DNA of 24,276 bases from a virus (taxonomy: Duplodnaviria; Heunggongvirae; Uroviricota; Caudoviricetes), in IMG/VR virus record IMGVR_UViG_648276660_000003, positions 1 to 24,276 of that record. The stretch is one strand, 5' to 3'. Below the pieces are notes generated by a model. The model was not told where the DNA came from, did not search any database, and worked only from the letters and a program-made list of their open reading frames with translations. Below, in pieces: positions 2,401 to 6,402 of the stretch. The translations under genes and the position numbers were made by a program. Position 1 is the stretch's first letter, and every line of letters starts with the position of its first letter.

Positions 2401-2655
2401 ATGGCTAGAGACGATCCGCACTTTAACTTCCGTATGCCTTTGGAAGTAAGAGAAAAATTGAAATTAAGAGCAGAGGCTAACGGAAGGTCAATGAACTCAG
2501 AGTTATTACAAATCGTTCAGGATGCGCTATCAAAACCATCACCGATTACAGGATATCGCGACGAAGCTGAACGCTTGGCTGATCAGCAGGCAGAGCAGTT
2601 CAAGGCCGTAGTTTTTGAGACTCTAAAAAACATGTATGGCAATGGTGAAAAATGA
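2401..2655 (+). CDS. mnt: Mnt repressor (maintenance of lysogeny, immI)
   Basis: MARDDPHFNFRMPLEVREKLKLRAEANGRSMNSELLQIVQDALSKPSP... is near-identical to the P22 Mnt N-terminal region as I remember it. Confidence 0.9.
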   Translation: MARDDPHFNFRMPLEVREKLKLRAEANGRSMNSELLQIVQDALSKPSPITGYRDEAERLADQQAEQFKAVVFETLKNMYGNGEK

Positions 2656-2969
2656 AACGTATAGCAATCCTATTGCTCCTGTGTCTCTCGAGCATAGCTA
2701 ACGCAGAAACAAAATCAGACGATAGCAGTTTTGATGAAATACAAGGCCTCATGATAGCTTCTAAAATGGCTGGTATGTGTGGTGCAATCAAACAAATGGC
2801 AATATTCCAAGAATCTACAAACATGCCGGGTGGGAATGAATTCTTACAGAGATTCCTTACTACAGAGCAAGCAAGGCTTGGGATGACTCCGCAGCAATTT
2901 CTTGAAGCATGTCAGAAATCAATCTCTATTTATACCACCTATTACAATATGAGCTCTGAGAAAAAATAG
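2652..2969 (+). CDS. hypothetical secreted (periplasmic) protein, translationally coupled to mnt
   Basis: ATG at 2652 overlaps the mnt stop (ATGA). The N-terminus MKRIAILLLLCLSSIANA-ETK looks like a Sec signal peptide with an AXA cleavage site. The mature part is about 87 aa with two Cys. No family recognised. Confidence 0.6.
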   Translation: MKRIAILLLLCLSSIANAETKSDDSSFDEIQGLMIASKMAGMCGAIKQMAIFQESTNMPGGNEFLQRFLTTEQARLGMTPQQFLEACQKSISIYTTYYNMSSEKK

Positions 2970-2978
2970 ACAAGGATT

Positions 2979-3173
2979 TCAACAACTTCCGCGTACCTGA
3001 GTAATTCTGTCGCGGATTTGCTTCTTACGGTGGTTTAAGCTGGAGAGCTTGGCTTCTGCTTCTGATATTTGCGCATCCAAATCTTTAAGCTCAAGATCTG
3101 AAAGTCGCTGGTCAAGCAGGGTTTGGTTCAACTCAATGTTGTTCAGGCGTTCTTCTATGGTCATAACTTTCAT
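2979..3173 (-). CDS. hypothetical small coiled-coil protein (about 62-65 aa)
   Basis: ORF track, trimmed to MKVMTIEERLNNIELNQTLLDQRLSDLELKDLDAQISEAEAKL..., which has a heptad-like charged/leucine pattern. AGGA lies 8 nt upstream of the second ATG (3164). The longer track version overlaps the plus-strand ORF 3196..3378. Confidence 0.3.
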   Translation of the reverse strand: MKVMTIEERLNNIELNQTLLDQRLSDLELKDLDAQISEAEAKLSSLNHRKKQIRDRITQVRGSC

Positions 3174-3195
3174 CCTATAACTATTTGGAATCAAA

Positions 3196-3378
3196 ATGAA
3201 AAATATATTAATTGGTTTCGTTTTTGGTGCAGCCTGCGCCGCCAGCATTAGCGTTATCGCCGCCCAGATTGTTGGTGGTAACTCATATCTAATGGGCTAT
3301 GACGTCATGATAAATGGAGAGGTTGTTTGCTCAGATCCTTATGTATGGACATCGACAAAAGAAATAGAATGTGACTAA
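3196..3378 (+). CDS. hypothetical small membrane or secreted peptide (60 aa)
   Basis: A hydrophobic stretch [23 protein letters not shown] is followed by a 35-aa tail with two Cys. A hairpin plus T-run follows at 3381-3405. The RBS is weak. Confidence 0.35.
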
Positions 3379-3380
3379 TA

Positions 3381-3405
3381 CCAGCCTGATGGCTGGTTAA
3401 TTTTT
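3381..3405 (+). terminator. rho-independent terminator
   Basis: CCAGCC, loop TGAT, GGCTGG, then TTAATTTTT, immediately after the stop of the 60-aa ORF. Confidence 0.5.
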
Positions 3406-3488: not shown

Positions 3489-3668
3489 ATGGCGAAAAAA
3501 CCAGGTGAAAACACAGGAAAAAACGGTGGAATATACCAAGAAGTTGGCCCACGCGGCGGTAAGAAAGACAATTTTGCCACCGTCAAGGACAACGAAAGGC
3601 TTCCGCCAACAACAAAGCCAGGTCATGGCTGGGTATTGGATAAGCGAACTCCAGACAGCAAAAAGTAA
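3489..3668 (+). CDS. small basic protein (59 aa), possibly YjzC-like
   Basis: RBS GAGGT lies 6 nt upstream of the ATG. MAKKPGENTGKNGGIYQEVGPRGGKKDNFATVKDNERLPPTTKPGHGWVLDKRTPDSKK has a G-x-Y-x-E-V-G-P-R-G-G core that I associate, from memory and unverified, with the YjzC-like small-protein family. The unit is bracketed by its own promoter-like element and terminator. Confidence 0.55.
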   Translation: MAKKPGENTGKNGGIYQEVGPRGGKKDNFATVKDNERLPPTTKPGHGWVLDKRTPDSKK

Positions 3669-3673
3669 TACTC

Positions 3674-3696
3674 AAGCCGGATCACTCCGGCTTTTT
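3674..3696 (+). terminator. rho-independent terminator, probably shared by the convergent genes
   Basis: AAGCCGGA, loop TCAC, TCCGGCTT, then a T-run on the plus strand. The stop codon of the minus-strand HExxH gene lies in the loop. Confidence 0.55.
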
Positions 3697-4077: not shown

Positions 4078-4467
4078 GTGAAACAATTTCTTGCTGCTAT
4101 GTTCTTATTCATATCTTTTGGGGCTACAGCAGAGTGCTGGGTCGTTGGAGATATGCGCGGAATAAGCTATTCAGAACGAAATAATTTCCATCCGGAAGAA
4201 GATGGTTTTAGTGGAACATTCATCATTAAGACAAGCGGTGAAGATGCTAGCATCACATATTCTGGGACAGATGCGGGCGGCATGGCTTACAAAGTATTGT
4301 CTAAAAACTCCATCATAGGAATCGGCGCGAATGGCGAAACTCAACGCGTTATCGACTCATGGGTAATACATCCTACTGGAACAGTTTTAATGTCAAAAAC
4401 CATTTCCGGTTATGGAAATATGGATTCAACCAAAGCTTTTGTTGGAAAAGTAAAAAGAAAATGTTAG
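4078..4467 (+). CDS. hypothetical secreted protein (129 aa), divergent from the HExxH gene
   Basis: Strong SD AAGGAGG lies 5 nt before an in-frame GTG at 4078. The N-terminus (V/M)KQFLAAMFLFISFGATA-EC looks like a signal peptide. The mature part has Cys near both termini. The upstream part of the track ORF (3862-4077) overlaps the HExxH gene and is rejected. Confidence 0.5.
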   Translation: MKQFLAAMFLFISFGATAECWVVGDMRGISYSERNNFHPEEDGFSGTFIIKTSGEDASITYSGTDAGGMAYKVLSKNSIIGIGANGETQRVIDSWVIHPTGTVLMSKTISGYGNMDSTKAFVGKVKRKC

Positions 4468-4491: not shown

Positions 4492-6402
4492 TTACTGCTG
4501 TGTTGCCTCAGTGGCAAGCAGCGGCCTGATGGCATTCGCAGCGTTATTCAGCGCTCTTTCATAGGCTGGCGTTCCAGCTTTAGTGTTTGCCAGACGTAAG
4601 AGAGCATTCCTTGCTGCTTTGGACTCATACAAGCGCATGATTGCACCGAAACCAGCCTCAAGTCCCAGTGATACACCAAGGGTTGCAGTTGCGCCAATCG
4701 TTCTAATCCTGTTAGCTTGCGATTGTCCTGTCTGTGTTACTACATTTGCGGCGTCCGACCTTGCTGTTTGCTGTAGAACTTCATGAAGAGCATCAAGCTC
4801 TTTCATGTGTCTCCCACTGAATATCGTGTTATAGATCTGACCGTCAGATTGCGACTTCAACTTATTTAACTCGGTAAGAAATTTTGTTGGCGAGTCTCCT
4901 GCTTTTTCTGCAATCTTGCTGATATAAGCAGCACGCATAGCGTTCTTTCCATCTTCACTAAGAGCTGGCCATATCCTCTTAATATCTGATGGTTTTCTGC
5001 TGAATACAACGCTGTTTATTAGCTCTGGAGTAAACTCTTTTTTAGCTTTGTTGAGATTGTTCGCAATCCTTTTATTAAGAACCTTATTGAAGACGTTGGA
5101 GTAGTCAGAGTTTGCTTTGACGTATCTGGCGGCCTCTCCAGCCCCCAAATACCGCGCTGCGTTATTCCTCAAATCCGCCCCCATTGCCCTCTCCACGGCA
5201 TCAGTTGCGGCTTTCGCGCTATTAGGAAAAACCATGGCATCTCCCTGAATACTTTCCCTCAAGGCTGACCGCAACTCTCTCAATAGACCAAAATCTATAT
5301 CTGGTTTAGCAAGTTCTTCTCGCAAATCGGATAACCCGCGAATCAAATCCTTATTTGCCACTTTCCCAAGCCTATTAGCTCTGGTAAGTACGTTGTCGAT
5401 AACCTTAATAGATTTTGATGTGTCAACTGGTGTGTCTCCCATTTTGGCTGTAATGTCTTCAATAACGCTTCCGGCCGAATCCTTCCTTGACTTCAGAGAG
5501 CCATACAGATCGTCAACAACAACTGATGGGCTATATTCACCATATTTCTCAAGCTGTTTTTTAACTAGCTGACTTCTTTTTGCATACTGCTCAGCTCGCT
5601 TTGAGCCTGTTCCCAGCAAAGCCCCCTCAGCATCCTGAGTAAGACCACGAGTGAAAGCATTTTTCGGCGGGATTACATCAGATGTCATTGGTGTCACGCC
5701 CATCGATTCTGATGTGGCAATTTTCTTCGCCACTTCTGGTGCAATATCACCTTTAAAGGCAGTTATTCCACGCTCAAGCCCTTTTGCAACAGTATTAACA
5801 GCACCACCTGTTAGCATGCCAACACCTATATCTGTTGCCAGTTTTCCCGCATCATTTTTCTCACTGTTTGCGGCGAGCGATCCGACTGCGTTTTCTGCCA
5901 GAAGACGGGCTGCGCCTTGAGTAATTCGACCAGCAAGTGTTGGCGCCTGAGTTGAAGCGCCGCCAACGCCAACAGTAGCCAGGTAAGGCAATGCCTCCGC
6001 AAACACCCTACCTTCTGTCGTTTGTGGAGTCAGAGCACCTTGCTGAAGTCCAAACGCCTGCTCTAATCCCTGAGTTGTTACTCGTGGCGCTGGTTGATAT
6101 GTTCCATCGCCAATACCGAGTTTACCGCCAGCCCATGCCGCCGCGCTTGTTACAGCATCGGCAACTGATGCTGGTATATTTGCCACATTTACACCAGCCT
6201 GCACCAGACCGCGACCAGTTTCTTTTACTGCTTCGCCGAGGTCAGACATAAATCCATCTTGCTGTTCTACAGGCTGCTTTTGGTTTTGAGTTGGTTGATT
6301 ACTGGAGGACAGAATCTGAGCGATGCGACGTGCTCCCTCAGTATCACCAGCAGCATCAGCATTCCTTAACGCCGTCATCAATTGTTCACGACTATAGGCC
6401 AT
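4492..6402 (-). CDS. ejection/DNA-transfer protein, P22 gp16-like (636 aa)
   Basis: Size and position as the last gene of the 14-7-20-16 block. Ala/Gly/Gln-rich composition typical of ejection proteins. Confidence 0.8.
   Translation of the reverse strand: MAYSREQLMTALRNADAAGDTEGARRIAQILSSSNQPTQNQKQPVEQQDGFMSDLGEAVKETGRGLVQAGVNVANIPASVADAVTSAAAWAGGKLGIGDGTYQPAPRVTTQGLEQAFGLQQGALTPQTTEGRVFAEALPYLATVGVGGASTQAPTLAGRITQGAARLLAENAVGSLAANSEKNDAGKLATDIGVGMLTGGAVNTVAKGLERGITAFKGDIAPEVAKKIATSESMGVTPMTSDVIPPKNAFTRGLTQDAEGALLGTGSKRAEQYAKRSQLVKKQLEKYGEYSPSVVVDDLYGSLKSRKDSAGSVIEDITAKMGDTPVDTSKSIKVIDNVLTRANRLGKVANKDLIRGLSDLREELAKPDIDFGLLRELRSALRESIQGDAMVFPNSAKAATDAVERAMGADLRNNAARYLGAGEAARYVKANSDYSNVFNKVLNKRIANNLNKAKKEFTPELINSVVFSRKPSDIKRIWPALSEDGKNAMRAAYISKIAEKAGDSPTKFLTELNKLKSQSDGQIYNTIFSGRHMKELDALHEVLQQTARSDAANVVTQTGQSQANRIRTIGATATLGVSLGLEAGFGAIMRLYESKAARNALLRLANTKAGTPAYERALNNAANAIRPLLATEATQQ

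Follow-up and report, generated by a model that had tools for sequence, protein, structure and literature searches.

A gene for a small, predicted periplasmic protein coupled to mnt in a P22-like prophage, and its widespread unannotated family

Background

What is the role of a small gene that begins inside the stop codon of a phage maintenance repressor gene? We address this question for an open reading frame (ORF) of 105 amino acids (aa) that overlaps mnt in the IMG/VR virus record IMGVR_UViG_648276660_000003, a sequence of the Caudoviricetes of which positions 1 to 24,276 were analysed (hereafter the window, 24,276 nucleotides (nt) in length). The question is of general relevance: prophage accessory genes expressed in lysogeny shape bacterial competition, phage resistance and virulence, and most small ones are unannotated.

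The ORF is best explained as a moron, a piece of cargo placed in the mnt operon, within the immI or 'ant moron' region of a P22/HK620-like prophage. The kind of feature, a phage moron in the 'ant moron' hot spot, is known; what is new is the widespread and uncharacterised family to which the gene belongs. As a tentative reading, which we favour, the product would be a protective periplasmic binder or inhibitor that blocks an incoming murein hydrolase.

A selected gene coupled to mnt

The features that define the coupling are the following.

Positions 2401 to 2655, + strand: mnt, maintenance repressor gene, 84 aa (Pfam Arc and Repressor_Mnt; allele alignment with a conserved C-terminal junction)
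Positions 2644 to 2655, + strand: coupling junction, consisting of a GGTGA Shine-Dalgarno sequence (2644-2648), a 3-nt spacer and ATGA (2652-2655)
Positions 2652 to 2969, + strand: the ORF, 105 aa, RefSeq WP_000820796.1 'hypothetical protein', a member of PHROG 19844

The start codon of the ORF (ATG, 2652-2654) overlaps the stop codon of mnt (TGA, 2653-2655), so that the two genes share the 4 nt ATGA. Both the Shine-Dalgarno sequence and the ATG of the ORF lie within the last mnt codons (…MYGNGEK*). The overlap, already pointed out in a preliminary description of this DNA, is kept in all 21 IMG/VR loci encoding a protein at least 71% identical to the ORF product, and also in Escherichia coli O104:H4 C227-11 and Citrobacter freundii. 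In the 21 loci the overlapped gene is Arc/Mnt-like and represents at least four mnt alleles, most of them only 35-45% identical to the one in the window. Co-expression with Mnt is well supported by this constancy of the 4-nt overlap, which holds in all 21 loci and for at least four alleles of mnt. The mnt alleles with a coupled gene have the C-terminal ending '…MYG(K/N)(D/G)EK*' in common, whose codons supply the Shine-Dalgarno sequence and the start codon. The C-terminus of P22 Mnt is different, and P22 orf59a lies approximately 100 nt from mnt.

The repressor itself matches the profiles of the Arc-like ribbon-helix-helix domain (PF03869, 4.6e-28) and of the Mnt C-terminal domain (PF11423, Repressor_Mnt, 1.5e-11), and is 78% identical to P22 Mnt. 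The promoter/operator region at 2300-2420, comprising the 121 nt upstream of mnt, shows 98% identity to P22. Pmnt and Pant were the two best matches of a promoter scan, and P22 coordinates were transferred from the annotated P22-pbi features.

Positions 2327 to 2349 (approximately): Mnt operator, mapped from P22-pbi
Positions 2345 to 2373, + strand: Pmnt, coinciding with the annotated P22 Pmnt
Positions 2353 to 2373 (approximately): Arc operator, mapped from P22-pbi
Positions 2378 to 2350, - strand: Pant, coinciding with the annotated P22 Pant and overlapping the divergent Pmnt

The promoter named in the preliminary description is consequently of the P22 type. Sequence features strongly support a model in which the ORF would be transcribed from this Pmnt and translated via ATGA coupling to mnt. 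A terminator scan yielded no terminator directly after the ORF, where the fold of positions 2960-3040 is no better than that of shuffled sequence (z = 0.49); the first + strand terminator-like hairpin with a T-run downstream of mnt is located at 3380-3397.

The ORF is a genuine, selected gene, because its dN/dS ratio is as low as 0.09-0.15 (0.146 against the O104:H4 allele, at 72% aa identity, and 0.093 against the Citrobacter allele) and a profile search finds 256 homologous clusters. E. coli and Salmonella contigs that encode the exact protein number at least 1000 in public databases; all names there are 'hypothetical' apart from one automatic 'periplasmic protein'. Among 5426 complete E. 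coli genomes the gene is present in 54, and among the matches listed it always overlaps an annotation 'Arc family DNA-binding protein'. The gene is common, then, and a diverged allele is carried by the O104:H4 outbreak strain. A literature search found no papers mentioning WP_000820796, WP_000820795 or PHROG 19844.

The window covers the virion-gene half and the immI region of a prophage related to HK620, Sf6 and P22 (Lederbergvirus). An alignment with HK620 covers about 68% of the window at 96% identity, and the E. coli MS 198-1 chromosome has the region around the ORF at 100% identity, adjoining intS. The ORF lies in a variable region, called the 'ant moron' by Casjens and colleagues and known as a site for morons (PMC2629481), with the following flanks.

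Positions 4492 to 6402, - strand: ejection-protein gene 16, one flank
Running off the left end of the window: tailspike gene, the other flank

Relative to P22, the window has an insertion of approximately 830 nt between mnt and its orf59a homologue. This insertion comprises the ORF, a 60-aa ORF that has a signal peptide and, on the opposite strand, an XhlA-like gene. The ORF is absent from P22, HK620 and Sf6. It has the hallmarks of a phage moron, namely a patchy presence among syntenic relatives, a deviant GC content (39.6% against 48.6% for the rest of the phage) and a position behind Pmnt on the strand opposite the late genes. Its expression is probably independent of the late operon.

This arrangement also bears on a role in the lytic cycle, such as lysis timing or the maturation of virion or ejection proteins, with the mnt overlap a mere product of compact insertion. 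The late operon does enclose the region, with gene 16 on one side and the tailspike gene on the other, and the convergent XhlA-like gene belongs to a family associated with holins. However, the ORF is on the strand opposite the late genes and part of the mnt transcription unit, most P22-like phages do without it, and its family is found in non-phage islands as well. We regard a lytic role as highly improbable.

A predicted exported three-helix protein

The product can be divided into a signal peptide and a compact mature domain.

Positions 2652 to 2705, + strand: predicted Sec signal peptide (MKRIAILLLLCLSSIANA, residues 1-18), which signal peptidase I would cut before E19 (sequence rules)
Positions 2706 to 2966, + strand: mature domain, 87 aa, 9.8 kDa, isoelectric point 5.0, a three-helix bundle in the AlphaFold2 model
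Positions 2778 to 2780, + strand: C43 in helix 1, a conserved cysteine
Positions 2823 to 2843, + strand: loop M58-F64 (MPGGNEF), conserved, with N at position 62 here and D in most family members
Positions 2910 to 2912, + strand: C87 in helix 3, a conserved cysteine

On inspection, the N-terminus reads MKR, then IAILLLLCLSSI, then ANA followed by E after the cleavage site. It fits the n/h/c and -3/-1 rules, which ask for a positive n-region, a hydrophobic h-region of 10-15 residues, small residues at -3 and -1 and no lipobox. The cleavage after ANA anticipated in the preliminary description agrees with these rules, and a hydrophobic N-terminal stretch is found in 95 of 95 aligned family members. 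GenBank carries a DeepTMHMM note on the homologue in phage Kapi1, 'signal residues 1-22'. Export by a cleavable Sec signal peptide is therefore a strongly supported prediction. A lipoprotein was considered and rejected, as LLLC does not qualify as a lipobox and only 1 of the 95 members has one.

AlphaFold2, run with an alignment of 88 sequences, gives a model with a pLDDT of 88 (94-98 in the core), in which the signal helix is followed by three helices at residues 24-56, 61-76 and 80-102. The MPGG(D/N)EF segment forms the turn between helices 1 and 2. The signal peptide is the only hydrophobic segment, and the rest is predicted to be an amphipathic three-helix bundle. The mature part has exactly two cysteines, C43 and C87, which are conserved in 94 of 95 members, in line with the small two-cysteine domain described earlier. 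From their placement in helices 1 and 3 in the model, they probably form a disulfide. A diguanylate cyclase was also rejected: the loop reads GGDEF in most members, but the resemblance is almost certainly a coincidence, given a predicted periplasmic fold of three bundled helices in about 87 residues.

A widespread family without annotation

The ORF product matches PHROG 19844 over its full length (positions 1-105 of 105, E = 1.1e-69), a group in the category 'unknown function'. Close relatives are few (11 clusters at 90%). A profile search against 1.84 billion representatives yields 256 clusters at E <= 1e-3 (167 of them at E <= 1e-10), counted as clusters at 50% identity, and nearly all of these proteins are 95-115 aa long. 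The product has no match in Pfam, NCBIfam or PADLOC, Pfam searches of 88 relatives give nothing consistent, the family profile has no hit among PDB sequences at E <= 10 and no fold match was informative. The Pfam, NCBIfam and PDB searches likewise reveal no homology to a housekeeping periplasmic protein; such homology is what the preliminary description had said would speak against its proposal.

In the alignment of 95 sequences, exactly two mature cysteines are seen in 90 and an acidic mature protein in 76. Mean column identity is approximately 30%, against which the near-invariant motif K..G.CG…FQ..T.MPGGDEF..RF…E..R…C…Y stands out. The near-invariant positions are K38, G41, C43, G44, F52, Q53, T56, G60, G61, F64, R67, F68, E72, R75, C87 and Y94.

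Family members occur in P22-like prophages of E. coli, Salmonella and Citrobacter. In a lambda-like Yersinia prophage a member lies downstream of an Arc-like gene in an antirepressor (Arc/Bro-N) module, and others are found within a Mu-like baseplate cluster (on the opposite strand), in the early regions of Pseudomonas-type phage genomes and in an internal-protein cluster of a podovirus. Islands with a member include P4-like ones with primase, AlpA and integrase, a VapE/capsid satellite-like element, and an island of Pseudomonas nitroreducens that bears a cyclic-oligonucleotide-based anti-phage signalling system (CBASS). Members are also seen in Methylophaga, Sulfurimonas, Nitrosomonas, Oceanospirillales and Pseudobdellovibrionaceae. 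Among cultured phages just two have a member, Salmonella phage S.Kent 1-2-1 and Kapi1, and no plasmid copies were found. The family is thus widespread and unannotated, and its genes are carried singly, as cargo, by prophages of podo-, sipho- and myoviruses, by satellites and by islands across Proteobacteria.

Inspection of 12 genome, 45 viral and 21 metagenome loci, plus 7 look-ups of the exact protein, revealed no conserved partner gene. Among 120 neighbouring proteins from 32 non-redundant contexts, the commonest Pfam domains are Bro-N (3), phage integrase (2) and Arc (2); the neighbours were called by a crude longest-ORF rule, which may miss small adjacent genes. Two variations in copy number were also seen. 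A metagenome-assembled genome of Oceanospirillales has two separate family copies (L013, L015), and a metagenomic protein of 202 aa (P0023) is a tandem duplication of the domain.

These patterns bear on two further explanations. The first is lysogenic conversion: the protein would alter host physiology instead of stopping an invader, with a conserved periplasmic component of the host or a small ligand as its target. It might, for example, serve as a chaperone, buffer stress, bind a metal or metabolite, or modulate an envelope machine. Conservation of nearly 100% at K38, Q53, T56, R67, E72, R75 and Y94 against a background of about 30% resembles a ligand or partner site more than an arms race, and the family genes are solitary, without a partner. 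Expression data of a related prophage, Gally, point the same way: in macrophages mnt is induced 40-fold and the genes of the mnt region 6- to 40-fold (PMC9928086). On the other hand, no similarity to known periplasmic chaperone or binding families is seen, apart from the two presumably disulfide-bonded cysteines no metal site of His, Met or Cys is conserved, and the family is nearly confined to mobile elements instead of core genomes. Taken together, we consider this explanation somewhat unlikely.

The second is a superinfection exclusion specific to P22-like phages, with the protein as a soluble counterpart of SieA acting on the periplasmic ejection conduit formed by gp7, gp20 and gp16. The ORF shares the interval between gene 16 and mnt with P22 sieA, near the ejection-protein genes, and no sieA homologue is annotated in this region of the prophage; SieA has been proposed to interfere with periplasmic gp20 and membrane gp16 (PMC10883804). 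Nevertheless, the same invariant residues recur in lambda-like, Mu-like and Pseudomonas phages and in P4-like islands, and members are present in bacteria that do not serve P22-like phages as hosts, such as Sulfurimonas, Nitrosomonas and Methylophaga. An invariant binding face would be unexpected for a target as variable as the ejection proteins, and we judge such a specific mechanism unlikely.

A general cargo slot after mnt

To see what else occupies the position of the ORF, we made a census of 80 IMG/VR loci with the mnt type of the window. Each occupant is listed with the gap to the mnt stop codon in nt, where negative values are overlaps.

Rap1a: 10 loci (-4)
193-aa protein of unknown function: 11 loci (-4)
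ClpP-like protein: 7 loci (-1)
89-aa protein of unknown function: 5 loci (-8)
239-aa protein: 8 loci (+49)
199-aa protein: 4 loci (+42)
orf59a: 5 loci (+84)
None or other: 25 loci

The census thus shows a general cargo junction after mnt. Its codons are ATGA for Rap1a and for a Kapi1 ORF, and TAATG for the ClpP-like gene. Among the occupants, only Rap1a and the ClpP-like protein could be assigned to a family, and most have no Pfam or PADLOC match. A slot reserved for exported proteins was rejected, as the census also shows cytoplasmic-looking cargo. As a separate observation, the mnt 3' end (2615-2655 of the window) is conserved (L099-L178, L003, L004 and L001), and unrelated cargo genes are attached to it by overlapping stop and start codons.

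The Rap1a/Tai4 gene (PF18602, 9.8e-15) is also found in this slot at 2853-3188 of L003 and at 2853-3188 of L005 (E. coli WCHEC050613 and ETEC1747). A periplasmic gene of this family coupled to mnt in P22-like prophages looks like a phage-borne orphan immunity gene of a type VI secretion system (T6SS), and a literature search found no published report of such an arrangement. For the ORF itself, this brings up a narrower form of the reading we favour, that of a cognate or orphan T6SS immunity protein of one specific effector family. The identical mnt-overlapping slot is used by Rap1a/Tai4 in 10 of the 80 loci and in the two E. coli loci above, and the ORF product is small, helical, acidic, predicted to be periplasmic and disulfide-containing. 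Yet comparison with Rap1a by hhalign gives a probability of 1.4%, PF18602 is not matched, and no effector, VgrG, PAAR or Hcp gene is seen among the 120 neighbours in 32 contexts, although a true immunity family should somewhere adjoin an effector. This narrower form is very unlikely.

A more far-reaching idea would combine the family and the slot: periplasmic three-helix inhibitors on mobile elements, with the ORF product as the first member to be recognised, would constitute a new class of single-gene immunity, spread by phages of every morphotype and broad against murein-degrading or other envelope attackers from virions, T6SS or bacteriocins, and the mnt 3' end (…MYG-x-x-EK*ATGA) would be a dedicated docking junction for interchangeable, repressor-coupled and lysogen-specific cargo. 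We put this forward as a doubtful proposal.

A possible function in the periplasm

In the reading that we favour, a protective binder or inhibitor, the mature protein would be located in the periplasm of the lysogen. There it would bind via a near-invariant polar face and loop (K38, Q53, T56, MPGG(D/N)EF, R67, E72, R75 and Y94) and neutralise a conserved class of incoming envelope-attacking proteins. The most likely target would be a peptidoglycan-degrading enzyme, delivered by the virion of a superinfecting phage or by the T6SS or bacteriocin system of a competitor. As a result the lysogen would be protected, as with T4 Spackle or the Tai/Rap immunity proteins.

Several observations led us to this reading. 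The same polar residues across phyla and phage types argue that the target class is conserved, for instance the active site of an enzyme or a conserved host component, and not for the fast-evolving ejection proteins of one phage group. The position next to the ejection-protein genes, where P22 keeps sieA, together with the solitary, mobile distribution fits a defensive accessory gene. Superinfection exclusion or lysogenic conversion, both suggested in the preliminary description, is plausible from position only, the ORF being in the 'ant moron' where P22 keeps sieA. The acidity of the protein, typical of inhibitors of basic murein hydrolases, lends weak support to an inhibitor.

Other observations weigh against a protective inhibitor. 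No T6SS, effector or lysin genes lie beside family members in the 120 neighbours and 32 contexts, and the near-invariant residues could be structural or could bind a host component or small ligand. The apparently cytoplasmic cargo in the slot (the ClpP-like protein and the 193-, 89- and 239-aa proteins) makes the analogy with Rap1a a weak one. Finally, expression of the ORF in lysogens, presumed by analogy with P22 Pmnt, may not be a constant property: mnt transcripts were undetected in the Kapi1 lysogen (PMC12922286), a paper that gives no value for the homologue Kapi1_059, and mnt expression is strongly condition-dependent in Gally (PMC9928086). The earlier statement that the protein is produced constitutively in lysogens is not established.

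The confident structure model, the sharply defined conserved surface and the breadth of the family should make a search for the target tractable, and its identification would apply to hundreds of mobile elements. Likewise, the stop/start junction of mnt is a reusable cargo slot and therefore a convenient place to seek new functions expressed in lysogens.

Other features of the region

The immI set of the window is complete, with arc, ant, mnt and sar RNA present. Its remaining features, together with the genes between mnt and gene 16, are given below.

Positions 1873 to 1938, + strand: sar antisense RNA (RF00262, 60.3 bits), present in P22 too
Positions 1934 to 2155, - strand: extra 73-aa ORF (WP_000668598.1) between arc and the sar/ant start, not in P22
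Positions 2979 to 3164, - strand: 61-aa coiled-coil XhlA-like ORF (phrog_7586), convergent with the mnt-coupled ORF
Positions 3196 to 3378, + strand: 60-aa ORF (phrog_37095), a homologue of Kapi1_060
Positions 3489 to 3668: orf59a homologue, followed by a t_mnt-like terminator at 3674-3693
Positions 4099 to 4467, + strand: 122-aa ORF

The 61-aa ORF would be antisense to any transcript reading through from Pmnt, and longer versions of it are labelled 'hemolysin XhlA family' in RefSeq. Across E. coli genomes it accompanies alleles of the mnt-coupled ORF of at least 95% identity, as one mosaic block of approximately 2615-3180. The 60-aa and 122-aa ORFs both have an N-terminal signal or hydrophobic segment and two cysteines, which brings the putative small exported proteins between mnt and gene 16 to three, the mnt-coupled ORF included. 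Homologues of the 122-aa ORF are located after Rap1a in one locus (L003) and between mnt and a family member in another (L070). In E. coli O104:H4 C227-11 the order is mnt, family member and a gene for a 161-aa lipoprotein (L024 4341-4826); the latter has the lipobox LLAGC and no Pfam or PADLOC match.

Comparison with known systems

None of the PADLOC anti-phage defence models is matched by the ORF family, and the comparison with known systems concerns gene arrangement and protein design. The lambda rexAB genes are accessory genes in the cI operon, co-transcribed with the maintenance repressor. They are also mentioned in PMC2629481. P22 orf59a, like the ORF, is an accessory gene co-transcribed with a maintenance repressor (in the order mnt, orf59a, terminator t_mnt); unlike the ORF, it has a cytoplasmic, YjzC-like product and is separated from mnt by about 100 nt.

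P22 sieA shares with the ORF its place between gene 16 and mnt in the 'ant moron', and SieA is expressed by the prophage and acts on the envelope. The preliminary description had set the two proteins apart, and rightly so: SieA is integral to the inner membrane, with three transmembrane segments (PMC10883804). The ORF product, by contrast, lacks these segments and is predicted to be soluble and exported, and its gene is coupled to mnt.

Two kinds of small periplasmic protein are similar in design. Rap1a/Tai4 proteins (PF18602) resemble the ORF product in their length of about 110 aa, their signal peptide and, in sister prophages, the identical slot over the mnt stop codon; as immunity proteins they are helical with a disulfide. 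Membership of this family was rejected on the hhalign result, the missing effector association and the lack of a PF18602 match in the ORF product and 88 relatives. Homology to T4 Spackle (Sp, gp61.3) was likewise rejected by hhalign profile comparison. In its outline, however, the ORF product is like Spackle, being phage-encoded and approximately 100 aa long, with a cleavable signal peptide and a small two-cysteine mature domain. The Spackle domain is helical; working in the periplasm, Spackle blocks the murein hydrolase of an incoming phage, the gp5 lysozyme.

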